Shown here: in pieces, positions 26,397-54,836 of the stretch
Layout: every line of letters starts with the position of its first letter
How positions within the stretch are numbered: position 1 is the first letter of the stretch
Assembly: GCA_964425075.1 (NCBI GenBank)
Contig: CAYRKM010000001.1
Coordinates: 705,793 to 769,792, forward strand
DNA length: 64,000 nucleotides
Origin: an uncultured Gammaproteobacteria bacterium
GTDB lineage: Bacteria; Patescibacteriota; Microgenomatia; Levybacterales; GWA1-39-11
Reading direction: 5' to 3'
Translations under genes and position numbers: made by a program
The notes under the pieces: model-generated
Told to the model about the DNA's origin: nothing
Seen by the model: only the letters and a program-made list of their open reading frames with translations
Database searches by the model: none

Positions 26397-27447
26397 TATA
26401 TCGCCAATTAGCACAAAATCGACTTCACAGCACAAAGTACGTGGTGTTGGAGCATATATCAATTTATTAAAAGAACATCTACCAGTCGAGGACAAAAAAA
26501 ATGAATATTTATTTATCGAAGACAAGAAAATTCCAAAGGACATAGACTTACTCCATTTTCCGTATTTTGACCCTTTTTTCTTAACTTTTCCCTTAATTAA
26601 AAAAAAGAAAACAGTCATAACGATTCACGATATTATTCCGCTTGCTCATGGGAAGGAGTTTCCTGCAGGAATTAAAGGGAATTTAAAATGGCAAATTAAT
26701 AAAAGAATTTTATTGTCTGCAGATGGGATTATTACTGATTCAAAGGCTTCTAGAAATGCTTTAAATAAGCTCTTAAATTATCCTAACGAGAAAACATACG
26801 TTGTTCCTCTTGGTGTTAGTAGTGACTTTAAAAAAATAAAGCTTTCTAATTTTGATATTAAGACAATCAAGGAAAAATATTCGCTGCCGGATCGTTTCCT
26901 GATGTATGTTGGCGATGTTACATGGAATAAAAATTTGCCAAGGCTTATTGAGGCCATTAATTTAATACATAACATTCCTCTTGTTATGGTAGGAAGAGCT
27001 ATAACAGAAAAAGAATTCGATAAGTCTAATTCTTGGAATAGAGATAGAAATTATTTGATTAAGAATACAGAGAATAAGTTATTTCACAAACTAGGATTTG
27101 TTCCTACAACTGACCTAATAATGCTTTATAACCTTGCTGATGCTTTGGTCATGCCTTCCCTTGATGAAGGGTTTGGGTTACCGGCATTGGAAGCGATGAG
27201 CTGTGGTTGCCCAGTGATTATATCTCATGAAGGAAGTCTTCCTGAGGTAGGGGGAGAGGCTGCATTATATGTAGATGCTTATTCTACAGAGAACATAAAA
27301 AAAACACTAGAAAAAGTTTGGACCGATTCAGAATTAAGAAAGAGATTATCAACTAAGTCGATTGAACAATCTAGAAAATTTTCTATTGAAAAAATGATAA
27401 GAGATACAGTAAGTGCTTACGAAATAATAAATGAAAAAGCACATTAA
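26365..27447 (+). CDS. GT4 family glycosyltransferase
   Basis: 360 aa. DEGFGLPALEAMSCGCPVIISHEGSLPEVGG matches the GT4 C-terminal domain. An alternative start at 26380 (MRIGIDI) is possible. Confidence 0.7.
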   Translation: MKEKNMRIGIDISPISTKSTSQHKVRGVGAYINLLKEHLPVEDKKNEYLFIEDKKIPKDIDLLHFPYFDPFFLTFPLIKKKKTVITIHDIIPLAHGKEFPAGIKGNLKWQINKRILLSADGIITDSKASRNALNKLLNYPNEKTYVVPLGVSSDFKKIKLSNFDIKTIKEKYSLPDRFLMYVGDVTWNKNLPRLIEAINLIHNIPLVMVGRAITEKEFDKSNSWNRDRNYLIKNTENKLFHKLGFVPTTDLIMLYNLADALVMPSLDEGFGLPALEAMSCGCPVIISHEGSLPEVGGEAALYVDAYSTENIKKTLEKVWTDSELRKRLSTKSIEQSRKFSIEKMIRDTVSAYEIINEKAH

Positions 27448-28699
27448 TAAAATTATTTCAAATCCTCTCATTTCGGGAAGCAGCATCATTTTTCTGGGAA
27501 CTTTTTTTGCGAATATTTTTAACTATGGATTTAGTCTAATTCTTGGTAGATTATTGCCAGTTTCAGAATATGGATTGGTTGTTTCTCTTGCATCAATAAT
27601 TGCGATATTTACACTTTTTCAAGCATCTTTTTCAAGTATTTTTGCAAAATTTACTGCTCAATATTATGCAAGCGGGGACAGCAAAAAACTAAAACTCTTG
27701 ATAAGTGGTGGGATGCAAGCTGTATTATTGTGTGGAGCAATTGTTTTCTGTCTTTTTTTAATAGGGATACCATTTCTTTCCTCATTTCTACATCTGAATA
27801 ATTTTTTTCTACTTTTAGTTATTGGCGTTTATATTTTTGTATCCTTTTTATACTCATTGCCATATGGTGTGTTGCAGGGAGAACTTCGATTCTTTTCTCT
27901 TTCAGGTTTAAATATTGCAAGCTCTGCTGTAAAAATAATTGTTGGAACTTTTCTAGTTTTATTGGGTTGGGGTGTTTTGGGAGCATTGGGAGGATATCTT
28001 TTCTCAATGATTGTGCCATTTATTATTGGTGTTGCTCTTATCTTTTCAAAAGTTGGATTTTCATGGGGAAAATCAAAACAGCTGGGAATATTCTTTTATG
28101 AATTTAGAAAATATAGTTTTTATTTTTTCCTTGCTTCTCTTGGAATAACCATTTTTAATACTTTGGACGTTGTTTTGGTGAGAAACATTTTTGATGAAGT
28201 AACATCTGGGCAATATGCTGCACTATCATTAATTGGAAAATCAATTTTCTATCTCACCTCTCCAATTTATTTTGTATTTTTTCCACTAATTTCAAAAAAG
28301 AATGAATTAAAAGAGAAACTTACCCCAACCCTTCTCCTTGCGTCCATTATTGTACTTGCAGTTTCAGGTAGTGCTTCTGTTTTCTATTTTCTTTTTCCGC
28401 ATTTAGTTGTTAACATCTTTTTTCCGGCAAAGGAATACGCAATGTTATCGCAATATGTAGGACTGTATTCAGTATTTATTACGGTGTTCTCATTGGCTTT
28501 TCTTTTAAATAATTTTTTCCTTTCTGTCGGGAAAACAGCAGTTTATAAAATAAATATTACATGTGGAGTTTTATTGGTAGGACTTATTTTTATGTTTAGT
28601 AAAAACCTTTATGATGTGATTTGGACCTTGTTAGTAATGTCTCTTGTGCTTTTTACTTCGCTTCTTATATACTACTTTTATTCTTATGCAAGGAATTAA
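27431..28699 (+). CDS. Wzx-like polysaccharide/oligosaccharide flippase (MOP superfamily)
   Basis: 422 aa, about 12 TM segments, with the helix-pair architecture typical of polysaccharide biosynthesis (Wzx) proteins. Confidence 0.5.
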   Translation: MKKHINKIISNPLISGSSIIFLGTFFANIFNYGFSLILGRLLPVSEYGLVVSLASIIAIFTLFQASFSSIFAKFTAQYYASGDSKKLKLLISGGMQAVLLCGAIVFCLFLIGIPFLSSFLHLNNFFLLLVIGVYIFVSFLYSLPYGVLQGELRFFSLSGLNIASSAVKIIVGTFLVLLGWGVLGALGGYLFSMIVPFIIGVALIFSKVGFSWGKSKQLGIFFYEFRKYSFYFFLASLGITIFNTLDVVLVRNIFDEVTSGQYAALSLIGKSIFYLTSPIYFVFFPLISKKNELKEKLTPTLLLASIIVLAVSGSASVFYFLFPHLVVNIFFPAKEYAMLSQYVGLYSVFITVFSLAFLLNNFFLSVGKTAVYKINITCGVLLVGLIFMFSKNLYDVIWTLLVMSLVLFTSLLIYYFYSYARN

Positions 28700-29462: not shown

Positions 29463-30574
29463 AAATTCTTATTTATAACTGGCGTGATTTAAAACATGAA
29501 TGGGCTGGGGGTAGTGAAGTATACATTTTTGAGTTGGCTAAAAGGTGGGTAGATATGGGTCATGAAGTAACTCTGTTTTGCGGACAAAATGTTAGAAATA
29601 ATCTTAAGGAAGAAGAAATGGTTGGAAAAATAAAAATTTATAGAAAGGGGAACAAATTTACACTTTATTTCTGGGGAGCATATTATTATCTAACAAAATT
29701 TCATGGACAATTTGATGTGATTGTTGATGTTGAAAACGGTACACCATTCTTTACGCCATTGTTTTCAAGAACTCCAAAGGTGTGTCTGGTGCACCATGTG
29801 CATGGGAGTCAATTTTTTTACGAATTCCCTTTTCCACTAAGTTATGTCGGATTTTTTATAGAAAGATATTTTTTTCCGCTTTTTTACAAAAATATTCCCA
29901 TTATTGCTGTTTCTAATACAACAAAAAACAAATTGGTTAAATTGGGATTTCGAAAAAACAACATTAGTGTTGTTTATAATGCTGTCAAAAGTATAAAAAA
30001 ATCAAGCTTTACCCAAGCAAGATTTTCTCATCCCACTTTTGTTTATTTGGGAAGGATTAAGAAATATAAAAGAGTGGATATGTTGGTTAGAATTATGCCA
30101 GAAATTTTGAAAAAAGTGCCAAATGCAAGCCTTATTATTGCAGGCTGGGGAACAGAAGCATCGACAATTGCTGATATCTCAATGCGAAGCGCGGTTAGAA
30201 AAAAGGTAAAAATAATGGGTCCTGTCTCTGAAAGTGAAAAAAAACATCTTCTTGCAAAATCATGGGTTTTTGTGAACCCTTCAATAGGAGAGGGTTGGGG
30301 CCTTTCCGTTATTGAGGCCAATCTTTATGGAACACCGGCAATCGCTTTTAGGGTGCCTGGTTTGTCAGAGTCTATTAGAGATAAAGAAACTGGACTTCTT
30401 GTGGACAGTGAAAAAGATTTAGTAAACAAAATATTGTTTGTTCTAATGAATTCAAAAGAAAGGGAAAGGTTGAGTAAGAACGCGCTTGCATGGGCAAAGC
30501 AATTTAATTGGGACGAGTCTGCTGTTAAGAGTAGCCATATTCTTAGGAATGCTCTGAAAAGACAAAATGCTTAA
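29459..30574 (+). CDS. GT4 family glycosyltransferase
   Basis: 371 aa. GEGWGLSVIEANLYGTPAIAFRVPGLSESI motif. Confidence 0.7.
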   Translation: MKILIYNWRDLKHEWAGGSEVYIFELAKRWVDMGHEVTLFCGQNVRNNLKEEEMVGKIKIYRKGNKFTLYFWGAYYYLTKFHGQFDVIVDVENGTPFFTPLFSRTPKVCLVHHVHGSQFFYEFPFPLSYVGFFIERYFFPLFYKNIPIIAVSNTTKNKLVKLGFRKNNISVVYNAVKSIKKSSFTQARFSHPTFVYLGRIKKYKRVDMLVRIMPEILKKVPNASLIIAGWGTEASTIADISMRSAVRKKVKIMGPVSESEKKHLLAKSWVFVNPSIGEGWGLSVIEANLYGTPAIAFRVPGLSESIRDKETGLLVDSEKDLVNKILFVLMNSKERERLSKNALAWAKQFNWDESAVKSSHILRNALKRQNA

Positions 30575-31898
30575 AAATATATTTAAATCACCTCAAATAT
30601 TATTTATTTTTCTCTTAATTTTAATTGTTGGATTACATCTTAGAGCTCACAATTTAATTACCTGGCCACGTCTTGGTGCAACTTTCGATGAATATGCTTG
30701 GACATGGCAAGGGGTAAGTCTTATTCAGGATGGAATGCCTCAATCTTGGTCATATCATCCACAATACAAAAACCGCAAAGAAATTAAATATCAAAAAGCA
30801 ACATTCATATTGGTAAAGCCCTACCTTGAGCACCCTCCGCTATTTGGTTTGGTTGCGGGTTCCTACGCATTGCTTACTGGTTCTAATAATATGTTTGACA
30901 TCAACATTCCTACCATGCGTGGTCTTGCATTAATTTTGGGGGCATTAAGCATTACCATGGTGTTTTTTGTTGCAGGTAAAATTTATGGACCCGGTATTGG
31001 ATTGCTGTCTTCTCTCCTTTATGCAGTGATTCCTACGATTGCTGTTGGTTCGAGAATTGTTCAGAATGAAAACTTTTTTATTCCCATGTGGCTTTTATCC
31101 ATCTATTTCGCAATTTTGTATCTAGAAAAAAATAAGTCGATTTTTCGAAATATAGCAATAATAATCGCGTCCCTCCTAATTCTTTCTAAAATTCCTTGGA
31201 TTGCTGCCCCTTTTTCTATAGGCATCATCTTTCTTTTTAGTAAAAAATATAAGGATATAACTATTCTTTTAATTAGCGTGCTAGCGGTTTTTTTGGCTTA
31301 TTTTCTTTACGGATTTTATTACGATAGAGAAGTTTTTTTGGGTTTGTGGGGGCTTCAGCTTAATCGCTATGATTTAGCTTTTGATAGTATTTATGCACTT
31401 TTTCAAAAGCCATATCTTGCTGATAGATATTATACGGATGGGTGGATTTTTTGGGGATGGATATCCTTTGTTCTTTTATTAATTAAAGACTTTAGGAAAA
31501 ACTTTATTTTAATTTCAGTACTTCTTTCTTATTTTCTGGTTTTCTTAGCTGGTATCCCTGATGAATCAGGTCATGGGTGGTATAGATACCCCTTCTATCC
31601 ATTTCTTGCGATTTCAATTGCGCTTTTCATAAAGGAATATTTTGCAAAAAATTGGGTTTTGACATTTCTTTTTTTGGTTTTTGTTGGAACAACGCTTATG
31701 AATTTAGTATGGACTCCAAAATTTGGATTCTCTTATCCAATATTTAGGTTAAGTATTATTAGTTGGGCACTAGTTCTTGTCCCATTGTACATAAGCGATA
31801 AAAAGATAATTTTATTTGGAAAAATTGTTAGTTATTCTTGGTTAATAATTTTAATAATGATGAGTATCAGGGCAATTATTTATTATAACGAGATGTAG
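30567..31898 (+). CDS. ArnT/PMT_2-like membrane glycosyltransferase (GT-C)
   Basis: 443 aa. ATFDEYAWTWQG acidic motif after TM1 and YLEHPPLFGLV (the xPPL motif). Confidence 0.55.
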   Translation: MLKNIFKSPQILFIFLLILIVGLHLRAHNLITWPRLGATFDEYAWTWQGVSLIQDGMPQSWSYHPQYKNRKEIKYQKATFILVKPYLEHPPLFGLVAGSYALLTGSNNMFDINIPTMRGLALILGALSITMVFFVAGKIYGPGIGLLSSLLYAVIPTIAVGSRIVQNENFFIPMWLLSIYFAILYLEKNKSIFRNIAIIIASLLILSKIPWIAAPFSIGIIFLFSKKYKDITILLISVLAVFLAYFLYGFYYDREVFLGLWGLQLNRYDLAFDSIYALFQKPYLADRYYTDGWIFWGWISFVLLLIKDFRKNFILISVLLSYFLVFLAGIPDESGHGWYRYPFYPFLAISIALFIKEYFAKNWVLTFLFLVFVGTTLMNLVWTPKFGFSYPIFRLSIISWALVLVPLYISDKKIILFGKIVSYSWLIILIMMSIRAIIYYNEM

Positions 31899-31915: not shown

Positions 31916-32809
31916 ATGCGCAAAGCTTGCGGACAATATCCTAAAGCGCAAGCGAAATACAATTTTAAATTTATGTTTGGAAGAGAATATTCTAATTACC
32001 CCGAAATCCTTCTTTCCTCTTTTCGGCAAATGAATTCAAAATATAAAAAAATAGGCAAGAAAAGCAATAATAATTTGCTTCAAAAAATTTATATCTACTT
32101 GTTTGGAATTCCCGAAATAGGGTTTCAAATCAGGAGCATGTATTTTAATTCTATAATAGAAAAAAAATTGGGTAGGAAGAACCTTAAAAATATTCTTGAT
32201 GCTGGAAGTGGAATAGGAACATATGCTTTTTGGCTTTCAAAAAAATATCCTAAAGCAAAAGTCACAGGTGGAGAAGTTGACGCTGAGAAAATAGAGTTTA
32301 GTAAAAGGTTTGCAAAAGAAAGAAAAATAGAAAACACAGAATTTAAGAAAATGGATATTACTAAACTTACTGGAAAGAAAGATGGATTTGATTTAATAGT
32401 AAATATTGACGTTCTAGAACATATTGATGATTATAAAAAAGTTATAGCAAATTTTAAAAAAATACTTAGTCCAAGGGGTTATCTTTTTATACACACACCC
32501 CAGCCCAACCAAAAAAGAATTTTTAAAAGCACTAGAAATTGGTCGCATGAAGACCATAAGCACGAAGGATATGAGCCGTCTGAGTTAAGAAAAACACTTG
32601 AAGACAATGGTTTTAAGGTGTTAGTTATGAAAGAGACGTTTGGATATTTTGGAAAACTTGCATGGGAACTGAATCATATGAGTTTTAAAAAAGGATTTAT
32701 AGTTGCAGGCCTTCTTTACCCGATAACTTATGTGGTCTCAAAAGCAGATCTTTTAGTTAATAATAAGGGTGGATTGGGAACAGCTCTTCTTGTTCAGAAA
32801 AAGAATTAA
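31916..32809 (+). CDS. Class I SAM-dependent methyltransferase
   Basis: 297 aa. ILDAGSGIGTYAFWL (motif I) and DLIVNIDVLEHI (motif II/III). The true start may be a downstream Met. Confidence 0.65.
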   Translation: MRKACGQYPKAQAKYNFKFMFGREYSNYPEILLSSFRQMNSKYKKIGKKSNNNLLQKIYIYLFGIPEIGFQIRSMYFNSIIEKKLGRKNLKNILDAGSGIGTYAFWLSKKYPKAKVTGGEVDAEKIEFSKRFAKERKIENTEFKKMDITKLTGKKDGFDLIVNIDVLEHIDDYKKVIANFKKILSPRGYLFIHTPQPNQKRIFKSTRNWSHEDHKHEGYEPSELRKTLEDNGFKVLVMKETFGYFGKLAWELNHMSFKKGFIVAGLLYPITYVVSKADLLVNNKGGLGTALLVQKKN

Positions 32810-34008
32810 ATATACTTTTTAAGGAAAGCTTCGAATAATTCTTCAAGTCTCTTTATGTGTTTCTTTTCCAGTCCATGATGACATCCAATAACAAATGCAT
32901 TTTTCATTATCTCATCAGTAACGGGAAACTTTTCTTTTCCACTTGCTAAACCTTTGAATGCAGGCTGGCGCAAAATATTTCCCGTAAAAACGGGTCTTGT
33001 TTGTACATTATTTTTTTCAAGGTAGGTGGTAATTTCCTTTCTGGTAAATCCAGCACCACTTTTAATTGTAAGTGGATATGCAAGCCACTGTGTTTTTATT
33101 GTTTTATCTTGTATTGGCAAAACAAATAATTTTTGGTATTTCGTGAAGAATTTGCTAAGCTCCGCAAAATTTTCCTCTCTTATTTTTCTAAATTTAGGCA
33201 ATTTTGCTAATTGTACGTTTCCAAAAGCAGAACACATCTCGTTAGGGAGTAAATTATAAGCGATTTCATCAAATATAAATTTCGCATCATAATCAATTGG
33301 TCCAATTTTGTATTTAAATCGTTTGTTAATATCTTCTGATTCGCTAAAGAGAGAAGAACTTCTTCCCCAACCTCTTAATACCTTAGCTCTGTCAGCCCAT
33401 TTTGGATTATTCACCATCAGCATTCCGCCATTACCCCCTGCTGTTATGATATGAGATCCGAAGAATGACGTTGTAGTAATGTCTGAATATTTTCCCGTTG
33501 GGTCTCCATTAATTTTGGCCCCGAGAGTATCGCAAGAATCTTCTATCAAAAAGAGTTTATATTTATTTGCAATCATTCTTAATTTTTTCATATCCGGGAC
33601 ATTTCCTAGCAAAAGCGGAATCATTAATGCTTTTGTTTTTTTTGTAATTTTTTTCTCTATGTCATCAACATTAATGATATATTTTCCAGGGACTACATCG
33701 ACAAAAACTGGCTTTAATCCGTGTTGAAGTAATGGTGCTACGGTTGTTGAAAAGGTTAGGACTGGAGTTATAACCTCAGAACCTGGTGGAAGCGAAAGCA
33801 GGGAAATGGCAATAAAATTTGCAGAAGAGCCTGAATTTACCATAATTCCATATTTTTTTGAATTGATTGCAGCTACCTTTTTTTCAAAAGTCTTAGTTTC
33901 AATTCCCATGTTGGAGCGATGCTCTTTAAGGACATTTACTACAGCTTTTATTTCTTTTTCATCGTAAACAGAAAGAGCGTAAGGAACTCGAAGTGGTGTT
34001 TGTTTCAT
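32806..34008 (-). CDS. DegT/DnrJ/EryC1-family PLP/PMP enzyme with His in place of the Schiff-base Lys: sugar 3-dehydratase type (ColD/E1-like)
   Basis: 400 aa. EDSCDTLGA and TTSFFGSHIITAGGNGG align with the SFxxxKxIT...EGG motif of sugar aminotransferases, but the Lys position is H. Confidence 0.55.
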   Translation of the reverse strand: MKQTPLRVPYALSVYDEKEIKAVVNVLKEHRSNMGIETKTFEKKVAAINSKKYGIMVNSGSSANFIAISLLSLPPGSEVITPVLTFSTTVAPLLQHGLKPVFVDVVPGKYIINVDDIEKKITKKTKALMIPLLLGNVPDMKKLRMIANKYKLFLIEDSCDTLGAKINGDPTGKYSDITTTSFFGSHIITAGGNGGMLMVNNPKWADRAKVLRGWGRSSSLFSESEDINKRFKYKIGPIDYDAKFIFDEIAYNLLPNEMCSAFGNVQLAKLPKFRKIREENFAELSKFFTKYQKLFVLPIQDKTIKTQWLAYPLTIKSGAGFTRKEITTYLEKNNVQTRPVFTGNILRQPAFKGLASGKEKFPVTDEIMKNAFVIGCHHGLEKKHIKRLEELFEAFLKKYI

Positions 34009-34089
34009 ATTGCAATTATATTAATCTTTTCCTGTAATAACAAGACATTTTACATATTTTAGAGTTTAAATATATTAGCAATTTACCTA

Positions 34090-34098
34090 TGATAAAAT
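34090..34098 (+). promoter_or_regulatory. Extended -10 element TGaTAAAAT, 7 nt upstream of ATG 34105 (possible leaderless start)
   Basis: TGnTAAAAT at 34090..34098 places the predicted TSS at the A of the ATG. The region is AT-rich, so specificity is low. Confidence 0.2.
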
Positions 34099-34104
34099 TA
34101 CACA

Positions 34105-35115
34105 ATGAAAACCCACCCCCCATTATCCATTATTATTGTTGCCCTTAACGCAGAAAGGACAATTAAGGACTGTCTTAAATATATTGAAAATCAAACATAC
34201 AAAAACATAGCGGAAGTTTTAATAGTTGATGGGGGAAGTACAGACAATACGCTTACAATAGCCAATAATTCAAACCTTCCAATCAAAATTATTAAGGGTG
34301 GGTACAAGAATAATCAGGAAGCAAGAAGATCGGTCGGATTAAAAAAGGCAAAGAATGAACTTTGTGTCTATCTAGACACCGATAATTTTATTCTTGACAA
34401 ATCGTGGCTTGAGAAAATGGTCGAACCATTAATTACTCATAAAGAAGTTATCGCTTCACAAACACTTCGATATGCGGTTCCGAAGAACACCACGTTACTA
34501 AATAGGTATTTTGGGTTGATTGGTGCAAGTGACCCAGTTGCATATTATTTAGGAAAAGACGATAGATTGAGTTGGGCGTTTGATAAGTGGAATTTAAGGG
34601 GGAAGGTTTTAAAGGATTATAAAAAATACATAATTGTAGATTTTAGACCGGACATGTATCCCACAGTAGGTTGTAATGGTATAGTTTTTAGACGCTCGAA
34701 TCTCCTTAAATCAAATTGGGGTAATCCTGAAAATTATATACACACTGACGTATTTGTTGATGTTGCAAAATTGGGATATACAAAATTTGCAATTGTAAAA
34801 AATGAGATATTTCATAATACGGCTGAGAATATTTTTACTTTTTTTCAAAAGAGGAGGAGGTACATGGGTATATATCATGGAAATCTTAATAAAAAAAGAC
34901 GCCATCTCACATTTGACCCAAAAAGTCGCAGCGATGTTTTTAGGCTTTTCCTTTTTTTGATTTTTTCCTTAACCCTTATTGAGCCTTTAGCAGAGTCAAT
35001 AAGAGGATTTATAAAAAAAAGAGACATTGCGTGGTTTCTTCATCCAATTATTTGTCTTGGTATAATGCTTGTATATTCAGAAGTAACCTTAAGGAGAGCT
35101 ATTTTTAAAAAATAA
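34105..35115 (+). CDS. GT2 family glycosyltransferase with a C-terminal TM segment; paralog of 50332..51396
   Basis: 336 aa. LSIIIVALNAERTI...IVDGGSTDNT. The C-terminal AWFLHPIICLGIMLV is shared with 50332 (AWFLHPLMCLLMVV). Confidence 0.65.
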   Translation: MKTHPPLSIIIVALNAERTIKDCLKYIENQTYKNIAEVLIVDGGSTDNTLTIANNSNLPIKIIKGGYKNNQEARRSVGLKKAKNELCVYLDTDNFILDKSWLEKMVEPLITHKEVIASQTLRYAVPKNTTLLNRYFGLIGASDPVAYYLGKDDRLSWAFDKWNLRGKVLKDYKKYIIVDFRPDMYPTVGCNGIVFRRSNLLKSNWGNPENYIHTDVFVDVAKLGYTKFAIVKNEIFHNTAENIFTFFQKRRRYMGIYHGNLNKKRRHLTFDPKSRSDVFRLFLFLIFSLTLIEPLAESIRGFIKKRDIAWFLHPIICLGIMLVYSEVTLRRAIFKK

Positions 35116-35116
35116 T

Positions 35117-35989
35117 ATGACAAAAATTTTAATTTTTGGTGGACATGGTTTTATTGGTTTGAATATTCGAGATATCTTTATGGAAAATAGTGATTTTAAA
35201 ATCATTTCACCAACATCAAAAGAATGTGATCTTTTGAATCTGAATGATGTTAAAAGGATTATTAGGAAAGAGAAACCTGAAATTATTATTAATGCCGCAT
35301 TTGTTGGTGTTAGTGCTCGCATAAAATTTTCTGCGGATTATATTTTTACCAATACAACTTTAATAACAAATATTTTGCAATCATGCATTAATCAAAAAAA
35401 CATAAAAAAAATCATTCATTTTGGTTCAGCAGCGGAGTATGGTGATTCTGAAAAATTGATTGACGAGAATTTTTCAATTGCTCCCAAAAATATTTACGCT
35501 ACGGCAAAAGCAATTTCATCTCTTGCTGCACTGCAAATGCAAAGAGAATATGATCTTCCACTAATAATAATAAGACCATTCTATCTTTATGGCCCACATA
35601 ATAATAAAGGAGTTTTGTTAGACGTAGTCAGTGCAGTTGTAAAAAACGAGACACTATCAGTAACGAAGGGGGAGCAAGCAAGAGATTATATGTACGTGAA
35701 GGATCTAGCAAAAATAATTCTTAGGATTTGCCAACAACCTGAGTTGTTTAAAAATGGAGAGATTTACAATGTTGGCACGGGTAAGGGAGTAAGGCTTAAT
35801 CAAGTCTTTAAAATAATATTTGAATTATTTAAGAAAAAACCGTCATATTCCTATAGACCTTATAATAAATATGAATATTTTCATCAAGTCGCTGATAATA
35901 AAAAAATAAATAAGATATTAAAAATGAAATATACACCAATTGCCAAAGGTATGAAAGAGACGATTAGACTATTGCAGCAAGAAAAATAG
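35117..35989 (+). CDS. NAD(P)-dependent sugar epimerase/reductase (SDR); candidate CDP-dideoxyhexose 4-reductase (RfbJ/RfbS-like) or fucose-synthase-like
   Basis: 290 aa. IFGGHGFIG Rossmann motif and catalytic YATAK. Lies directly upstream of rfbF/rfbG. Confidence 0.5.
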   Translation: MTKILIFGGHGFIGLNIRDIFMENSDFKIISPTSKECDLLNLNDVKRIIRKEKPEIIINAAFVGVSARIKFSADYIFTNTTLITNILQSCINQKNIKKIIHFGSAAEYGDSEKLIDENFSIAPKNIYATAKAISSLAALQMQREYDLPLIIIRPFYLYGPHNNKGVLLDVVSAVVKNETLSVTKGEQARDYMYVKDLAKIILRICQQPELFKNGEIYNVGTGKGVRLNQVFKIIFELFKKKPSYSYRPYNKYEYFHQVADNKKINKILKMKYTPIAKGMKETIRLLQQEK

Positions 35990-36028
35990 CGTTGCAATTA
36001 CCCTTCTTAAAGGGTATATTAAACCCAT

Positions 36029-36808
36029 ATGAAAACAGTAATATTGGCAGGTGGCTTAGGATATAGATTAAAGGAAGAAACGGAATTTAAGCCAAAACCA
36101 ATGGTCCTAATAGGTGGTAAGCCAATGCTTTGGCATATAATGAAAATATATTCTCACTATGGTTTCAATGAATTTATAATAGCACTTGGTTATAAAGGAG
36201 ACTACATAAAGCAATATTTTCTAAATCAACAACATTACGCTAACAACTTCACAATAAACACAAAAACAGGTGTCACAAAATTTCATAAAAAGGATGAAAG
36301 CATAGATAATTTCAAGATAACCTTTGTTAATACAGGTGAGGAGACACAGCCAGGAGAAAGAATATTAAAAATAAAAAAGTTTATTCCTAAAGAGGATAAG
36401 TATTTTATGGTTACATATGGTGATGGAGTGGCAGACATTAACATAAAGGAGCTTGTTAAGTTTCACAAAAAACAAAAAACAATAGGTACTGTTACGGGAG
36501 TCCACCCAGGTTCTAGCAGATATGGTCTTTTGAAAGAGAATAGTAAAAATATAGTTACAGAGTTTGCAGAAAAGCCTATGGTGAAAGAAACAGTGAATGG
36601 AGGTTTTATGGTTTTTGATAAAAAAATATTTAATTTCATAAAAGAGGGGGAATTGGAACATGAAGCTCTTAAAAGACTCATCAAAATATCTCAACTTTCT
36701 GTTTTTAAGCACAGTGGATTTTGGCATTGCATGGATACATATCGCGATGTAGACGATCTTAACAAGTTATGGATTGAAGACCCCAAGTGGAAGTTATGGC
36801 GGGATTAA
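36029..36808 (+). CDS. rfbF: Glucose-1-phosphate cytidylyltransferase
   Basis: 259 aa. ILAGGLGYRLKEETEFKPKPMVLIGGKPMLWHIMKIYSHYG closely matches RfbF/DdhA. Confidence 0.8.
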   Translation: MKTVILAGGLGYRLKEETEFKPKPMVLIGGKPMLWHIMKIYSHYGFNEFIIALGYKGDYIKQYFLNQQHYANNFTINTKTGVTKFHKKDESIDNFKITFVNTGEETQPGERILKIKKFIPKEDKYFMVTYGDGVADINIKELVKFHKKQKTIGTVTGVHPGSSRYGLLKENSKNIVTEFAEKPMVKETVNGGFMVFDKKIFNFIKEGELEHEALKRLIKISQLSVFKHSGFWHCMDTYRDVDDLNKLWIEDPKWKLWRD

Positions 36809-37749
36809 CAAAACAAACTGTCCTTGTTACCGGTGGAACCGGATTTATTGGAAGTCATTTATCTTTAGCTTTAGCCAAAGCTGGATTTTCTGTAGTTGTA
36901 TTGGATATTGCAGTTAATCCTAATTCCTTTTTCTCGGTTGAAAAAATATATAGCTCCGTAATATTTGAGCTTTGTGATATTCGTGATAAAGATGCTGTCT
37001 TTAATATAGTACAAAAACACTCTCCAGACTATATTTTTCATCTTGCTGCAGAACCCATTGTGGAGAAAGCATTCGAGAATCCCTATTCTGCATTTGAGAC
37101 TAACATAATGGGTACGGTCAATGTCTTGGAGGCAGCACGTGGAAATGAAAATATAAAAGGTATTATCGTGACCTCCTCAGATAAAGCATACGGCAAAACT
37201 TTAAAAGCTTACACAGAAAACTCTGCTCTAAAGGGAGACCATCCATACGATGTTTCAAAATCAGCGCAGGATTTGATATCTCAAACATATTTTAAGACAT
37301 ACAATATGCCAATTGTAATAACACGCTTCGGTAATGTATATGGAGAGGGAGACATTCACCTAAACAGAATAATTCCTGGAATTTGTGAAGCGGTCATTAA
37401 AAATAAAACGCTTCAAATTAGAAGTAATGGAAAATATGTAAGAGATTATTTGTATGTTGGGGATGTTATTGCTGGATGTTTAGTGCTTTTAGAAAAATTT
37501 GAGAACAATATTGGGGAAGCATTTAATTTTTCATCAAGTGAGGGAATGAATGTCATTCAGGTCGTAAGATTAGCAGAAAAAGTTCTTGACAGAAAAATTC
37601 CTTTTAAAATTCTTGATATTGCCAAAAATGAAATTCCATATCAGCATCTTGATGACAAAAAAATTCGTAGGTTGGGTTTTAAGAATAAAGATAATTTTGC
37701 AAGCACTTTCCCAAAAATTATTACCTGGTACAGAAAAATTATTACTTAA
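36787..37749 (+). CDS. rfbG: CDP-glucose 4,6-dehydratase
   Basis: VTGGTGFIGSHLSLAL, CDIRD, IFHLAAEPIVEKAFENPYSAFETNIMGTVNVLEAAR and NIKGIIVTSSDKAYG align with RfbG/DdhB. The likely start is Met at 36796. Confidence 0.7.
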   Translation: MEVMAGLTKQTVLVTGGTGFIGSHLSLALAKAGFSVVVLDIAVNPNSFFSVEKIYSSVIFELCDIRDKDAVFNIVQKHSPDYIFHLAAEPIVEKAFENPYSAFETNIMGTVNVLEAARGNENIKGIIVTSSDKAYGKTLKAYTENSALKGDHPYDVSKSAQDLISQTYFKTYNMPIVITRFGNVYGEGDIHLNRIIPGICEAVIKNKTLQIRSNGKYVRDYLYVGDVIAGCLVLLEKFENNIGEAFNFSSSEGMNVIQVVRLAEKVLDRKIPFKILDIAKNEIPYQHLDDKKIRRLGFKNKDNFASTFPKIITWYRKIIT

Positions 37750-37813: not shown

Positions 37814-38836
37814 ATGGCAAAAAACGGATTAGTTAAAAATGGTTTGAAAGGACAAAAAAAGACAGCCTTAGTCTTGGGTGCAGGAGGTTTTATAGGAGGT
37901 CATTTAGTAAAAAGACTTAAGAAAGAAGGATTTTGGGTTAGGGGAGTTGATATTAAAAAACCAGAATATAGTGAGACTTTGGCTGACGAGTTTTATCTTG
38001 GAGACTTAAGAGATCAAGTTGTTTTTGCAAAAATAATGGATAAGCCATTTGATGAAGTTTATCAACTTGCAGCAGATATGGGAGGGGCTGGATATATTTT
38101 TTCAGGAGAACACGATGCAGACGTAATGCATAATTCTGCACAAATTAATTTAAACGCACTTCATTATGGTAGAAAGGCAAAAATCAAAAAAATATTCTTT
38201 TCCTCATCAGCCTGTATCTATCCAGAGCATAACCAATTAGATCCTGACAATCCAACAACCTCTGAGGAATCTGCATATCCTGCAGCTCCAGATAGTGAGT
38301 ATGGGTGGGAAAAATTATTCACAGAACGAATGTTTCTTGCGTACCACAGAAACTACGGAATGGAAGTTCGCATAGCAAGGTTCCACAACATTTTTGGTCC
38401 TGAAGGGGCATGGAATAATGGGAAAGAGAAGTCGCCTGCAGCAATTTGTAGAAAAATTGCACAAGCATCAAACGGAGGAACAATTGAAATGTGGGGGGAC
38501 GGAGAACAAACTAGGTCTTATCTTTATATAGATGAATGTTTGGAGGGAGTAAGGCGACTTATGAACTCGAATTTTACAGGACCCGTCAATATTGGGTCTG
38601 AGGAAATGGTAAGTATCAATAAGCTTGCCGAAACTGTTATGAAAATAGCCGGGAAGAAATTAAAAATAAAACACATAGAAGGCCCTCTGGGGGTTAGAGG
38701 TAGAAATTCAGACAATAAATTAATTGAAGAAAAATTGAAATGGAAACCAACAGCTCCACTTGCTGATGGTTTGAAGGAGACTTACGCCTGGATTGCTGCA
38801 CAAGTTGCGAAATCTGCGAAGTACATTCAAATATGA
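37814..38836 (+). CDS. GDP-mannose 3,5-epimerase homolog (GME family SDR)
   Basis: 340 aa. AADMGGAGYIFSGEHDADVMHNSAQINLNAL...FFSSSACIYPE, ARFHNIFGPEGAWNNGKEKSPAAICRK, MWGDGEQTRSYLYIDECLEGVRRLM and GPLGVRGRNSDNKLIEEKLKW are near-identical in pattern to plant GME. Confidence 0.7.
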   Translation: MAKNGLVKNGLKGQKKTALVLGAGGFIGGHLVKRLKKEGFWVRGVDIKKPEYSETLADEFYLGDLRDQVVFAKIMDKPFDEVYQLAADMGGAGYIFSGEHDADVMHNSAQINLNALHYGRKAKIKKIFFSSSACIYPEHNQLDPDNPTTSEESAYPAAPDSEYGWEKLFTERMFLAYHRNYGMEVRIARFHNIFGPEGAWNNGKEKSPAAICRKIAQASNGGTIEMWGDGEQTRSYLYIDECLEGVRRLMNSNFTGPVNIGSEEMVSINKLAETVMKIAGKKLKIKHIEGPLGVRGRNSDNKLIEEKLKWKPTAPLADGLKETYAWIAAQVAKSAKYIQI

Positions 38837-39657
38837 TAAGGAATCTGGTTATTGGATCTGCCGGATTCATAGGTAGGCCTTTTTGTAGGTACCTTGAGTA
38901 TAAAGGTGAAGAAGTAGTAACTTTCGACATCAAGAGCGAAAAATCACAGGACGGTAGAATATTTAATTTTGATTTCACAGAAATTGATAGGATATATTTC
39001 CTCGCATGGGATGTAGGAGGTTCTAAATATCTATACGAGTCAAAGCTCCAATTGTCACAGCTGAAATGGAATTTACAGTTGATGACTAACATTTTTGAAC
39101 ATCTTGAGAAACAAAAAAAGGATTTCCTTTTTGTTTCCAGTCAATTAGCCGAGGAAACAGATACTGTTTATGGGGTTACTAAAAAATTAGGGGAAGTTTG
39201 GACGAAAGAGTTAGGTGGGGCATGTATTAGAGTTTGGAATGCCTATGGATATATGGAACCATCAGACATCAAGAGCCATGTTATTTCCGATTTTATTTAT
39301 CAAGCGCTTGAAACCGGGAAAATAAAAATGATGACTGATGGAAGTGAATGGCGACAATTTACGCATATTGAAGATTTATCTCGTGCTTTTCATGGGGCAC
39401 TAACTTTGAAAAACCGAAAACGAACGATTTATGATGCGAGTAGCTATGAATGGGTAAGAATAATTGATGTTGCACAAATTATTGCAGATATAACTGGTGC
39501 AAAAATTATTCCAGGAGATAAAAAGGGGCATGATCCTCTTCCGTCTCAAAATTGCGGAAGAGTTCCCGGTTGGCTTCCTGAAATATCATTAGCGGACGGA
39601 ATTTCTCAAATGATTGATGAGGCAAAAGGAAAAATAAAGAATGCCAGAAAAAAGTAA
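38833..39657 (+). CDS. Short SDR-family NDP-sugar epimerase/reductase, translationally coupled to the GME homolog
   Basis: 274 aa. GSAGFIG Rossmann motif and YGVTK catalytic dyad. ATGA overlap with 37814..38836. Confidence 0.45.
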   Translation: MIRNLVIGSAGFIGRPFCRYLEYKGEEVVTFDIKSEKSQDGRIFNFDFTEIDRIYFLAWDVGGSKYLYESKLQLSQLKWNLQLMTNIFEHLEKQKKDFLFVSSQLAEETDTVYGVTKKLGEVWTKELGGACIRVWNAYGYMEPSDIKSHVISDFIYQALETGKIKMMTDGSEWRQFTHIEDLSRAFHGALTLKNRKRTIYDASSYEWVRIIDVAQIIADITGAKIIPGDKKGHDPLPSQNCGRVPGWLPEISLADGISQMIDEAKGKIKNARKK

Positions 39658-41798: not shown

Positions 41799-44700
41799 AT
41801 GCAGTTTATTAAAAAAAACCACTTTTTCTTTGAGATTGCATTTATTGTTCTTTTAAGTCTTATACCCCTCATCTGGTTCTCTCCACAACATATGATTTTT
41901 GGTAGTGATTCGGGTTATCCATTGGATTATGTTCAGTATTTTATTCAAAGAACCTATACTTGGACATCTGCCCAGAGCTTCGGTGAAGACATGTCGACAT
42001 TTATGGGAGCATTGCCACTCCATGGAATTCAGTTCGTTCTATCCATTCTAGGAATACCGTATTTTGATATCCAAAAAGTAACTTTAGTGTTTTGGTTTGC
42101 TTCGATCGCCTTTGCAATGTATTTCTGTGTAAAGTATTTTTTTAACAAACCTGAGCATTGGCCGATAAGACTAATATCTGTTGTTCTTTACTCTATCAAT
42201 TTTTACATCTTCCTTTTTTGGACAATAGGTTCTCAAACTACTTTAAGCGCTTATGTATTGTTACCGCTCAGTTTTCTTATTGTATTCATGTTTATAGATA
42301 AGAAAATCTCTCCCATACTTGCCGCAGTTTGTTTTAACTTATCCTACTTAGTTTTTAATGCAGGAGGAATAGGTGGAGTACCGCTTTTAGGTCCTGTTGC
42401 CGTAACCATTTTGAGTGGAATAATTTACCAGTCTATATTCACATTCAACAAAGAGTTCTTTGTGAGAGTACTAAGTCTTCTATTTTTTTCATTTATAATC
42501 TTTCTTGGATTAAATGCCTACTTTCTTTTTCCTTTTCTTTCTTCATTTGCTCAGCAGTTTAATACCCTGGTCGTAAAAAGTGGTGGTATTGATGGAGTTA
42601 TCGAATGGACAAATTTTATAAGCAAGTACGATAGTTATGCAAATCTGTTTAGACTACAGGGGGATAATATTTGGTATACGACGGAAAAAACATATGCTAC
42701 GCCGTATCTTAATAACCCAATCCTTATTTTAGCTAGTTTCAGTTTTCCAATACTTGCTTATTTTGTTCTATTTTTTAAATTAGAATATCGGATAAAAAAA
42801 CTTGTTTATTTTTTAATTACCATTTCATTGGTTGGGATTTTTTTATCAGCAGGTTCTCATGATCCATTGGGCTTTTTATATGAGTTAATGCTTAGGTTTA
42901 TCCCTGGATTTGCAGCATTTAGATCAGCTTTCTATAAATTTATGCCGTTGGTTCTTCTGCCCTTTTCAATCCTTATTGCAATGTCAATTTACATGATTTC
43001 ACAAAAAATTAGAATGTCTTATAGATTTTTAATCCCTATTATATTTATTTCATCTATTTTCGTTTATCACTATCCATTTTTTAATGTAGGAAATTTTTTG
43101 ACAAATAACACATTCAGCACAATGATTAAGATTCCAAATTACGTTACCAAATTTGTTGAAGAAAAACCTCCGCCAAATGATCAGTATCGAACTTTGGTTT
43201 TACCTCCATTTGACGATAACTATGCTATTGAGGCATACAAATGGAGTTATTTTAGTGGATATCCAATATTTCCGGGCGTTAGTAATAAGTCATTTATAGA
43301 GAACAATGCTTATTTAAATACTAATGAAGGAATTTTGGTGAACAGGCTTTACAAATTATTACGCAACGAAGAATATGATTTGTTTGTCGAAGAAGCATCA
43401 AGATTAAGTATTAGATATGTCCTTTTAACATCAGATGTCCATACCGAGATTACACCTCGTGAGGATCCTAAATTTTATCAAAGTAAATTGAAAACTAGCT
43501 ATTTTAAACCCGTTTGGAGCAATGGCCCATGGAGTATTTATGAAATTAACAGACCAACTAATTCAAAATTTCATGCATTTAGTGCCCTTACGTCATTTAA
43601 TGGAGAAAATCTTGAGGTACTTCCAATTCTCCCAGCCGGCAATAACAAATTTATTGAAAAAACAAAACAACATCCATCAAGTTCTTTAAATAGTGCAATA
43701 GATTCTATCAAATGTTCGTCTTGTATTTCTGTTGACAATGAGGACTTAGTTGCGGAACCACCAATTATTTTACCCAACTCCATATTTTACTCAATAAAGC
43801 TTTCTCGTGAAAGCAAAATAAATCCAAACCCATCAACAAATCAAGCAATTTACGATTTATTGGGAAGATCTCAAATAAGACTTTCTGAATTAAGAGGATT
43901 ATCTCAAATTCCAGAGATAAACGATGAAAATTGGTTTAAATCTATAGGTTTATTGACATCTAACTGGGCAACGATTTCAAGGATTCAAGATGAAAATACA
44001 GCAAATGATCTTTATCTTTTTAATAAATTAGAGAATTATAGTCATTTTCAGATAACCAATCTTAAGGAAATTTATTTTTACGAACCAGTTGGCAAAAGTA
44101 AAAAAATGGGAGGCTTGATAAGAGAGGCAATTGCAATGATCGAGAAAGTTCAGATAAAAAATGAAAGTAATATACAGAAAACAGAGAGTGGAAATATGTT
44201 TACATATAATATTGATTCTTTAACTCTTTTACAGAAGTCAAATCTAATTGTTGATCATGTTAGCCTTATGAAAAATGAGAATGGCGGTGTGATTTATCCG
44301 AATGCAATTAAATTTGATAATAACGAACCATTAAGTATTTATGCACAAAATGACACTAAGGACATTGTTATTCCAATACCCAAGATAAATCCAATCAAGA
44401 AAATCACTTTGTTTTTTCCGGAGAAAGAAAATAAATTTGTCTTTCCACGAGAAAAAGTTATCAACTCATCCTTTTTCAAGAAGGAAAGCTGCATTACTGG
44501 AGACATTAAAGACTTCAAATGGTATAAGACGTATCGCGTTACTTCAAAAATTGTTGGTAGTCCCGATAACCTGCATGTTTATATTACAAATATTTCAGCG
44601 GAAAAGCCCGATGCTGAAATATTTAAACCCGACAGGATAATTGACATTGATAAAGCAAGCATTAGGTATTTACATGTTGACATTCAAGGACGAGAAAACA

Positions 44701-54612: not shown

Positions 54613-54836
54613 AACCACAGGACTTAGTATTTATTGCAATAATTATAATATTATTTTTTCTAAAAAAACCAAGAGCGATGGTAGTAGCTGGTTTAGTTTG
54701 TCTTTTGCTTGCTATTCCATTGTTTGGCTTCTGGATATTTTTTACTGCACAAAGATTAACTTATTATGCAGCAGGTTTTTTTCTTGCCGCGAGTATTCTA
54801 TATTTGTGGTTTCTAAGGATAAAAAATACTAAATGA
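54609..54836 (+). CDS. Small 2-TM membrane protein
   Basis: 75 aa with two hydrophobic helices. ATGA-coupled to both neighbouring genes. Confidence 0.35.
   Translation: MKPQDLVFIAIIIILFFLKKPRAMVVAGLVCLLLAIPLFGFWIFFTAQRLTYYAAGFFLAASILYLWFLRIKNTK

Follow-up and report, generated by a model that had tools for sequence, protein, structure and literature searches.

The 64-kb stretch of DNA analyzed here, referred to as the window, carries a group of nucleotide-sugar genes beside a DegT-family gene whose product has a histidine in place of the expected Schiff-base lysine (Table 1). The positions of the open reading frames are exactly those of an earlier, sequence-only reading of the same DNA.

Table 1. 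Genes of the module, its flanks and the second DegT-family gene in the window
Feature	Position	Strand	Basis
Class I SAM methyltransferase	31916-32809	+	Pfam Methyltransf_31/23/11
DegT-family dehydratase homolog, 400 aa (His186 protein)	32806-34008	-	Pfam, NCBIfam, PDB, AF2 model
Family-2 glycosyltransferase (GT2)	34105-35115	+	Pfam Glycos_transf_2, 75 bits
Extended SDR, 290 aa	35117-35989	+	Pfam Epimerase, 143 bits
RfbF, glucose-1-phosphate cytidylyltransferase	36029-36808	+	TIGR02623, PDB 1tzf
RfbG-like NDP-glucose 4,6-dehydratase	36787-37749	+	TIGR02622, PDB 1rkx
GDP-mannose 3,5-epimerase homolog	37814-38836	+	PDB 2c59, 331 bits
SDR overlapping the epimerase homolog	38833-39657	+	
Second DegT homolog, His-type, ColD-like	54833-56008		FSFYVGHH; 222 bits to ColD

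Both RfbF and RfbG had been called clearly recognizable. For RfbF this holds: TIGR02623 matches at 275.8 bits over its full length (1-255 of 255; cut-off 300) and the best PDB match, 1tzf, scores 197 bits, making a solid homology-based case for a cytidylyltransferase that produces CDP-glucose. RfbG fares less well. A CDP-glucose-type 4,6-dehydratase with an Asp-Lys dyad can be recognized, but the TIGR02622 score of 196 bits falls short of the cut-off of 278; the dTDP-glucose dehydratase model reaches 177 bits, and among PDB entries 1rkx leads at 126 bits, with GalE and RmlB at about 120. The dyad lies in SSDKAYG, accompanied by a YDVSK motif, and is present in 59/61 RfbG proteins encoded beside canonical E1 and in 49/56 beside the cluster-free homologs described below. 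The protein is probably a CDP-glucose 4,6-dehydratase.

The remaining neighbors are more generic. The 290-aa SDR bears GxxGxxG and YATAK motifs, and family and PDB searches returned no specific relative. Weak homologs sit directly beside the cluster-free dehydratase gene in six of the loci compared and beside canonical E1 in none; we infer a candidate CDP-4-keto-3,6-dideoxyhexose 4-reductase, as a generic assignment. The GT2 gene is divergent from the dehydratase gene and is a candidate deoxysugar transferase; in four loci its homologs (213-450 bits) adjoin the dehydratase gene and are encoded on the strand opposite to it. The SAM methyltransferase gene converges on the dehydratase gene with a 4-bp overlap, a pairing repeated in two of those four loci (309-331 bits), and this conserved neighbor may modify the sugar or glycan. 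The epimerase homolog and its overlapping SDR also occur as a pair near cluster-free dehydratase genes in two loci, and the epimerase homolog alone in two others; the pair is probably a separate GDP-sugar branch, though syntenic in some relatives. Family profiles found no RmlA or Gmd in the module, and no Gmd anywhere in the 64-kb window.

The His186 protein belongs to the DegT_DnrJ_EryC1 family (PF01041, 268.9 bits), and its best NCBIfam match is RfbH (NF011936; 339 bits, cut-off 423), with PseC as runner-up at 184. The histidine proposed in SFFGSH (residues 181-186) is borne out by phmmer comparison with 3bcx and 3bb8 and by MAFFT multiple alignments with ColD and E1, which place His186 opposite E1 His220 and ColD His188; a pairwise phmmer alignment to ColD is off by one residue. 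His186 follows the conserved Ser by five residues, the spacing of the Lys in SFxxxK aminotransferases, and forms a Ser185-His186 dyad. E1 is the nearest solved relative both by sequence (3bcx, 216 bits, versus 160 bits for ColD) and by fold: the AF2 model (pLDDT 92.5) gives a Foldseek TM of 0.90 to E1, as opposed to 0.85-0.86. In a neighbor-joining tree, ColD and its relatives form a separate basal group apart from the His186 protein. The earlier assignment to PMP-dependent sugar 3-dehydratases is supported, the protein being a homolog of the E1/RfbH type and not an aminotransferase.

What the protein lacks is the iron-sulfur site. E1 binds its [2Fe-2S] cluster through C193-X57-C251-X-C253-X7-C261, four ligands conserved without exception in 17 canonical sequences and at 79/79 canonical loci. 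As the sequence-only reading had surmised, the His186 protein has too few cysteines for such a site: there are three in all (159, 259 and 376), not clustered, and only C159 coincides with a ligand (C193). In the alignment E1 C251, C253 and C261 become Ser, a gap or Leu, and Ile, and the Cys-bearing loop of E1 is replaced by RGWGRSSSLFSESEDINKRF. Positions 251, 253 and 261 are likewise without Cys in 80/80 cluster-free loci, and position 193 is Cys or Ala. The dyad differs as well: Ser-His in 79/80 cluster-free loci, matching ColD S187-H188, versus Ala-His in canonical E1.

This combination is widespread. All 120 close homologs carry the Ser-His signature without the cluster cysteines, and the top 150 representatives of 50%-identity sequence clusters include 58 cluster-free and 59 canonical proteins, so the sequence diversity of the cluster-free clade is about equal to that of canonical E1. 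The histidine is kept in 120/120 close homologs and 149/150 representatives, the sole exception being a fragment. Three independent assemblies encode the very same His186 protein; given this and the retention of His in homologs, neither chance nor sequencing error accounts for the His186 and Cys pattern. Fifty-three positions do not vary across the cluster-free and canonical sets, among them SGS, Asp157, Ser181, His186, WGR and Arg338, while about 35 are specific to the cluster-free clade. The clade is found, among others, in Patescibacteria, Ensifer, Novosphingobium, Ruegeria, Coxiellaceae, Chlamydiae, Bacteroidota and archaea, and some members are fused with 4,6-dehydratase, RmlC-like or RmlD-like domains, in favor of a part in deoxysugar synthesis. 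The E3-independent mechanism suggested by the sequence-only reading had been called unusual, which is apt insofar as the clade is biochemically uncharacterized—we found neither a paper describing it nor biochemical data for any member in the searchable literature—but not as regards its abundance.

The window has no E3, as previously stated: Pfam detected no Fer2, FAD_binding_6 or NAD_binding_1 protein among 50 of the 52 ORFs of at least 150 aa, the two left out being membrane-protein-like (443 aa, 30567-31898; 1126 aa, 41799-45179), and an HMM built from E3 genes adjoining canonical E1 matched none of the window ORFs of at least 80 aa, those two included. Across 80 loci of each type, this HMM matched in 11/80 canonical and 0/80 cluster-free loci. 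Where flanks were complete (at least 4 kb on both sides; 62 cluster-free and 26 canonical loci), an adjacent E3 was seen in 0/62 cluster-free versus 7/26 canonical four-Cys loci (Fisher p=1.0e-4). With only 7/26 canonical loci so equipped, absence at the level of a locus is weak evidence on its own. Full-flank cluster-free loci contain rfbF in 44/62 and rfbG in 46/62 cases (about 70%); the order rfbF-rfbG-dehydratase, usual in Proteobacteria, is conserved across phyla. Because the cluster-free clade is conserved, syntenic with rfbF-rfbG and never near an E3, these comparisons strengthen an E3-independent reading of the putative dehydratase.

How, then, does the protein relate to characterized systems? 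E1 (also DdhC, AscC or RfbH), the CDP-6-deoxy-L-threo-D-glycero-4-hexulose 3-dehydrase of Yersinia and Salmonella, shares 33% identity with it, along with the histidine, the common invariant positions and the upstream rfbF-rfbG context, and hence the same presumed substrate. Beyond the missing ligands, the altered dyad, the score below the RfbH cut-off and a clade never near E3, the His186 protein departs from E1 in lacking an 8-residue insert at E1 100-107. ColD, the GDP-4-keto-6-deoxy-D-mannose 3-dehydratase of E. coli O55 (PDB 2gms), and the C. jejuni HS:5/HS:11 C3-dehydratases are likewise cluster-free with a Ser-His dyad, and by analogy the His186 protein is predicted to share their use of PLP and an amino acid, without a reductase. 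It differs from ColD in clade (28% identity), in having His-Ile for His-His, in replacement of the Glu of the family-wide GEGG (GGNGG here), and in a CDP-glucose context rather than one of GDP-mannose (gmd, colC) or GDP-heptose. SpnQ, the TDP-4-keto-2,6-dideoxyglucose 3-dehydratase of the spinosyn forosamine pathway, is another His-type PMP enzyme without a dedicated E3, but retains the [2Fe-2S] motif, depends on ferredoxin/flavodoxin reductase pairs, and acts on a TDP-sugar in actinomycete secondary metabolism. With the DegT/DnrJ/EryC1/StrS aminotransferases (GDP-perosamine synthase, ArnB, PseC) there is a common fold-type I scaffold with PLP/PMP-binding residues, but exchange of the catalytic Lys for His makes their ordinary internal-aldimine cycle unavailable.

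On these comparisons we consider it probable that the module carries out CDP-hexose deoxygenation, with the C-3 step catalyzed by an enzyme of the E1 lineage that lacks a [2Fe-2S] cluster and does not depend on E3. RfbF would make CDP-glucose, as its strong homology indicates, and homology, dyad and synteny suggest that the RfbG-like SDR would convert this to CDP-4-keto-6-deoxy-D-glucose. The His186 enzyme, charged with PMP, would form a C4 ketimine; His186 would then take the C4' proton and the 3-OH would be expelled to give PMP-delta3,4-glucoseen. This glucoseen-forming step is common to E1, ColD and SpnQ, and the residues for it are conserved in the His186 protein. With no cluster to deliver electrons, release would be hydrolytic as in ColD, the enamine passing through a ketimine to yield CDP-4-keto-3,6-dideoxyglucose and ammonia. 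An amino acid, probably L-glutamate, would re-aminate PLP to PMP, and so serve as net reductant. The 290-aa SDR might reduce C4 to a paratose- or abequose-type CDP-3,6-dideoxyhexose, which the divergent GT2 might transfer. Both the ColD-like chemistry and the abequose/paratose-type end product are predictions. The chemistry has a precedent: ColD and the C. jejuni enzymes turn over with PLP and L-glutamate, free of a reductase (PMC8987622, PMC10440746). As the His186 protein lies outside the ColD clade, such turnover would be convergent or ancestral rather than inherited from ColD. According to a 2022 review (PMC8987622), E1 displayed no glutamate/PLP transamination, which counts against this reading, as do the replaced GEGG Glu, the sub-threshold RfbG and the generic 4-reductase assignment.

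Other sources of reductant deserve consideration. C-3 dehydration could proceed with the glucoseen reduced by another electron or hydride donor and released non-hydrolytically; candidate donors are a neighboring SDR and, as for SpnQ, a ferredoxin/flavodoxin system of general function. An SDR is very often adjacent to or fused with the cluster-free dehydratase, the protein is of E1 rather than ColD lineage, and SpnQ works with general cellular reductases (PMC8987622). Yet SpnQ cannot take up electrons without a cluster of its own, and the His186 protein has no possible site for one; across loci no conserved redox partner is seen besides ordinary sugar SDRs, which are expected beside deoxysugar genes as 4-ketoreductases. 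We regard this alternative as unlikely. A dTDP- or GDP-sugar substrate, with rfbF and rfbG serving another pathway, seems similarly unlikely. It gains from an RfbG that matches dTDP-glucose dehydratase and GalE nearly as well, from the epimerase homolog and ColD-like gene in the same window, and from the roughly 30% of cluster-free loci without rfbF or rfbG within 10 kb; it is opposed by full-length cytidylyltransferase homology in RfbF, by cross-phylum gene order, by a dyad like that of RfbG beside canonical E1, and by a module devoid of RmlA and Gmd.

It is quite doubtful that the enzyme acts in vivo other than as a 3-dehydratase, for instance as an aminotransferase of the His type or as some other PMP enzyme yielding a 4-amino or otherwise modified CDP-sugar. 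Reductase-free SpnQ does show C4 aminotransferase activity, but all characterized His-for-Lys members are 3-dehydratases (PMC8987622). Similarly, the GEGG replacement and the clade-specific positions would allow altered chemistry, but turning ColD into an aminotransferase takes S187N plus H188K (PDB 3gr9 title), and the clade holds to Ser-His. ThDP and C-methyl enzymes encoded next to the gene in relatives suit a 4-keto-3-deoxy product. Last, an ordinary E1/E3 (ddh/asc) pathway, with a [2Fe-2S] cluster and E3 encoded elsewhere in the genome, would fit the RfbH match, the rfbF-rfbG context and the 19/26 canonical loci that also have no adjacent E3, but is very improbable given three unclustered cysteines, the loss of three of four invariant ligands from this protein and at each of the 80 related loci, and the skewed co-localization of E3.

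More broadly, cluster-free Ser-His-[I/V] proteins may constitute a third mechanistic class of 3-dehydratase: E1-lineage enzymes acting on CDP-4-keto-6-deoxyglucose by ColD-type, amino-acid-driven chemistry, arisen by cluster loss or as a cluster-free ancestor, and the principal source of CDP-3,6-dideoxy and C-branched hexoses in the groups that carry them. We give this proposal an even chance. Were it true, those groups would span Patescibacteria, many Alphaproteobacteria, Legionellales, Chlamydiae, Bacteroidota and some archaea, and the E1/E3 radical system would be a special case, not the rule. Downstream of the cluster-free gene lie a sugar C-methyltransferase gene in Ensifer, and genes for a ThDP enzyme and an SDR in Coxiellaceae. 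The substrate of YerE is CDP-4-keto-3,6-dideoxyglucose (PMC9306805), and relatives seem to divert this 4-keto-3,6-dideoxy intermediate to C-methylated or ThDP-branched (yersiniose-like) sugars. The second DegT-family protein of the window also has His, not Lys, and is, by its alignment score, genuinely ColD-like, unlike the His186 protein.

The E1 dehydrase (RfbH) and its reductase partner E3 define the accepted origin of the CDP-3,6-dideoxyhexoses: abequose, paratose, tyvelose, ascarylose and yersiniose. E1/E3 remains, to our knowledge, the one textbook example of a sugar hydroxyl being removed by a PMP enzyme with the aid of an iron-sulfur cluster and radical chemistry. The 400-residue DegT-family protein of the window is a relative of E1 by descent, but lacks the cluster motif of E1 and scores below the curated cut-off. 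It matches Pfam DegT_DnrJ_EryC1 at 268.9 bits and the NCBIfam RfbH model at 339 bits, below that model's 423-bit cut-off, with PseC next at 184. Among solved structures, the Yersinia E1 dehydrase (3bcx/3bb8, 216/212 bits) scores highest, with ColD at 160 bits. An AlphaFold2 model (pLDDT 92.5, pTM 0.91) likewise matches E1 most closely (TM 0.90, 33% identity), followed by ColD (TM 0.85-0.86, 28%).

The sequence-only reading had proposed that the Schiff-base Lys of this protein is replaced by His, and alignment bears this out. Within SFFGSH (residues 181-186), His186 lies opposite E1 His220 in a phmmer alignment as well as three MAFFT alignments. It also lies opposite ColD His188, both in multiple alignments and by a fixed five-residue spacing from a conserved Ser, the pairwise ColD alignment being off by one residue. 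A one-residue insertion follows the catalytic His, and the family-wide GEGG motif appears as GGNGG at residues 190-195, the Glu giving way to Asn, Thr, Gly or Ser across the cluster-free clade.

The same reading held that the protein has too few Cys for an E1-type cluster, and the sequence agrees. E1 has Cys at positions 192, 193, 251, 253, 257, 261, 298 and 327, of which C193, C251, C253 and C261 are the invariant ones when E1 is aligned with 16 diverse canonical (four-Cys) homologs. Agnihotri et al. 2004 reportedly gave the E1 cluster motif as C-X57-C-X-C-X7-C, which we take to be C193/C251/C253/C261. The window protein contains only three Cys (159, 259 and 376). With C159 as the sole residue matching a ligand (C193), and with the 21-residue E1 loop replaced by RGWGRSSSLFSESEDINKRF, an E1-type [2Fe-2S] site cannot form, to judge from the sequence.

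Within the E1 lineage, this cluster-free form makes up a widespread, conserved branch associated with CDP-glucose genes. An identical protein occurs in three independent assemblies, and the closest 120 database clusters (65-78% identity) all read SF[FY]G[SA]H...GGxGG and contain 1-6 Cys. When 1.8 billion 50%-identity representatives were searched exhaustively, 890 clusters scored E<=1e-30. Among the best 150 of these 890, His occupies the Schiff-base column in 149; 58 are cluster-free like the query and carry I/V/L/M/A after the His, the canonical Cys are found in 59, and 32 are other cluster-free types, ColD-like included. In an indicative neighbour-joining tree, star-like and without bootstrap, the query falls within a coherent cluster-free group that stands apart from the basal ColD group and adjoins canonical E1 lineages. 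Not only do 79 canonical and 80 cluster-free sequences have 53 invariant positions in common (SGS, Asp157, Ser181, His186, WGR and Arg338 among them), they are also separated by about 35 consistent differences, which include C192S, C251S, C298F, P218G and A219S as well as an 8-residue insert that the cluster-free form has lost. That the gene is a pseudo-enzyme or decaying copy is ruled out by 65-78% identity over more than 100 clusters, the invariant active-site residues and the confident AlphaFold2 model.

Scanning one genome per GTDB species with the cluster-free alignment yielded 80 loci at 49-71% identity. Many come from Patescibacteria (Levybacteria, Saccharibacteria, Parcubacteria and others); cultured sources are Ensifer/Sinorhizobium, Ruegeria, Aliiroseovarius, Leisingera, Novosphingobium, Sphingobium, Kaistia and a Chitinophagaceae isolate, and further examples derive from Coxiellaceae/Legionellales, Chlamydiae, Verrucomicrobiota, Gemmatimonadota and archaeal MAGs. 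The His is present in 80/80 and preceded by Ser in 79/80—a Ser-His dyad like the S187-H188 arrangement of ColD—and none of the 80 has a Cys at E1 positions 251, 253 or 261. As a control, metagenomes were searched with the canonical alignment, and all 79 recovered proteins had Ala-His and all four Cys. Database labels are inconsistent, with JGI using 'CDP-6-deoxy-D-xylo-4-hexulose-3-dehydrase' or 'E1' and NCBI generic aminotransferase names. No paper on the cluster-free, CDP-linked form was found in a search that covered subscription journals thinly, and an earlier mention may exist; full-text searches for RfbH-like enzymes without a cluster, or for dideoxyhexoses of Patescibacteria, likewise came back empty.

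E3 is an RfbI-like Fe-S flavoprotein reductase, and its absence from the window, also noted from sequence alone, was confirmed in two ways. Pfam was applied to 50 of the 52 window ORFs of at least 150 aa and returned glycosyltransferases, GT-C-type membrane proteins, SDRs, methyl- and acetyltransferases and a sugar dehydrogenase, with no Fer2, FAD_binding_6 or NAD_binding_1 protein among them. An E3 HMM, built from ten E3 genes found by a relaxed motif 2.8-2.9 kb upstream of canonical E1, matched no window ORF of at least 80 aa, the two ORFs outside the Pfam scan included. For loci whose flanks each extend at least 4 kb, E3 accompanies 7 of 26 canonical genes (rfbF 26, rfbG 24) and none of 62 cluster-free genes (rfbF 44, rfbG 46; Fisher p=1.0e-4 for E3). 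Where present, E3 lies about 2.8-2.9 kb upstream, always in the order E3-rfbF-rfbG-rfbH. Because most canonical loci also have no adjacent E3, its absence from one locus is weak evidence; at canonical loci (L084-L163) E3 may often be encoded elsewhere, or general reductases may serve, as for SpnQ. The missing ligands weigh heavily and the co-localisation statistic lends support, and together they favour the earlier proposal of an E3-independent CDP-sugar 3-dehydratase.

The module region (31.9-39.7 kb, in a window of 33% GC) surrounds the dehydratase gene with the remaining parts of a CDP-sugar pathway. RfbF is, as previously recognized, homologous over its full length to glucose-1-phosphate cytidylyltransferase (TIGR02623 275.8 bits; PDB 1tzf 197 bits). 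RfbG had been called equally clear, which holds in part: the protein has the Asp-Lys dyad (SSDKAYG) also present in 59/61 RfbG genes that lie between rfbF and canonical E1 in metagenomic loci, but scores 196 bits against a TIGR02622 cut-off of 278, with dTDP-glucose dehydratase close behind at 177, and the PDB gives 1rkx at 126 bits and GalE/RmlB at about 120. The GDP-mannose 3,5-epimerase homolog was set aside as a member of the CDP pathway; since it scores 331 bits to plant GME (PDB 2c59), it more likely belongs to a separate GDP-sugar branch. Together with the 274-aa SDR, it lies within 10 kb of cluster-free dehydratase genes at two further loci (L005, L019); without that SDR, it occurs near cluster-free genes at L026 and L067, and at L118 next to a canonical E1. 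The convergent methyltransferase and dehydratase genes share 4 bp where their 3' ends meet (32806-32809), and L004 and L010 have these two genes in convergent orientation too.

Coordinates of the module genes and other features within the window
Feature	Position	Strand	Remark
GalE	20312-21289
Wzx-like flippase	27431-28699
Membrane-protein-like ORF	30567-31898		outside Pfam scan
Class I methyltransferase	31916-32809	+
DegT-family gene (cluster-free dehydratase)	32806-34008	-
GT2 glycosyltransferase	34105-35115	+	divergent from dehydratase gene
Extended SDR, 290 aa	35117-35989	+
RfbF	36029-36808	+
RfbG-like SDR	36787-37749	+
SDR, 340 aa (GDP-mannose 3,5-epimerase homolog)	37814-38836	+
SDR, 274 aa	38833-39657	+	overlaps epimerase homolog
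Membrane-protein-like ORF	41799-45179		outside Pfam scan
Second DegT homolog	54833-56008	+
NDP-sugar dehydrogenase	56714-57970

Homology and synteny suggest that the first two steps would give CDP-glucose and then CDP-4-keto-6-deoxyglucose. In the third, a PMP ketimine would form, the His would take a proton and the 3-OH would be lost, events common to E1, ColD and SpnQ (PMC8987622) and for which the residues are conserved in the dehydratase. With no cluster, the glucoseen adduct would have to leave without electron transfer, presumably in the fashion of ColD, whose type of release is the only one documented that dispenses with such transfer (PMC8987622; PMC10440746). The ColD route proceeds by hydrolysis to an enamine, tautomerisation and a further hydrolysis to yield the 4-keto-3,6-dideoxy sugar and ammonia, with L-glutamate re-aminating PLP (PMC8987622; PMC10440746 for the C. 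jejuni enzymes). In the C. jejuni enzymes, one 18O from H2(18)O is incorporated at C4 (PMC10440746). A plausible but generic final step would have the 290-aa SDR reduce C4 and the GT2 transfer an abequose- or paratose-type product; no specific family or structural relative of this SDR was found. We consider it very probable that the protein is a 3-dehydratase, and nearly as probable that it works without cluster or E3, while the full ColD-like scheme on a CDP-sugar is the version towards which we lean with less assurance.

The predicted mechanism of the dehydratase is like that of ColD; clade and context both place the enzyme outside the ColD family. Only E1, ColD and SpnQ were listed as characterised 3-dehydratases in a 2022 review, with clusters in E1 and SpnQ (PMC8987622); the C. 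jejuni enzymes described since then share 62-67% identity with ColD and use GDP-heptoses as substrates (PMC10440746). The window's second DegT homolog is also His-type (FSFYVGHHMSTIEGG), has no cluster Cys, and scores 222 bits to ColD/WbdK in the PDB versus 155 to E1. By its sequence it is a genuine ColD relative, so two distinct cluster-free sugar 3-dehydratases are predicted in the window, where no GDP-mannose 4,6-dehydratase was found.

The cluster-free clade is a sister to E1 of comparable diversity, in the same CDP-glucose context and unable to bind the cluster; it extends known chemistry rather than presenting a new kind of system. Should the proposed activity hold, pathway predictors that require E3 will miscall such pathways, and the surfaces of Patescibacteria and many cultivable environmental bacteria may commonly carry 3,6-dideoxy and branched sugars. 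E1 and its cluster-free counterpart would then constitute a natural experiment in the gain or loss of a redox cofactor on a PLP scaffold.

In the closest Patescibacteria-type loci (L004, L005, L006, L010), GT2 and rfbF-rfbG are syntenic with the dehydratase gene, as in the window. The methyltransferase recurs beside it in L004 and L010; the 290-aa SDR is strong only in L005 (262 bits), L010 having a 60-bit match at 5.6 kb. Farther afield, Ensifer adhaerens L18 (L041 8014-14547) has rfbF-rfbG-dehydratase-sugar C-methyltransferase-SDR-GT2, and a Coxiellaceae MAG (L040 8150-15889) has rfbF-rfbG-dehydratase-SDR-ThDP enzyme-SDR-DHQS-like. The latter order recalls yersiniose synthesis, in which YerE puts a two-carbon branch on CDP-4-keto-3,6-dideoxyglucose (PMC9306805). 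Both contexts are consistent with a 4-keto-3-deoxy product, and both are candidate routes by which cultivable or host-associated bacteria might make branched 3,6-dideoxy sugars. Other cluster-free members are naturally fused to 4,6-dehydratase, RmlC-like cupin (3,5-epimerase), RmlD-like reductase or other SDR domains (P0122, P0123, P0131, P0132, P0144, P0147, P0174), which suggests ascarylose-like L-sugar pathways in some lineages.

The window itself is an unusually large glycosylation island for an apparently small Patescibacteria-type genome. Nearly all of its genes are glycan-related, with many GT2 and GT4 transferases, at least eight large GT-C-like membrane proteins (YfhO, PMT/PMT_2, PTPS_related), acetyltransferases and several methyltransferases. 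Outside it, one cluster-free E1-like family member, P0124, is interrupted by an intein (Intein_splicing/Hint_2) next to the conserved active-site motif IEDSC, at a point that corresponds roughly to the junction of query residues 154 and 155.
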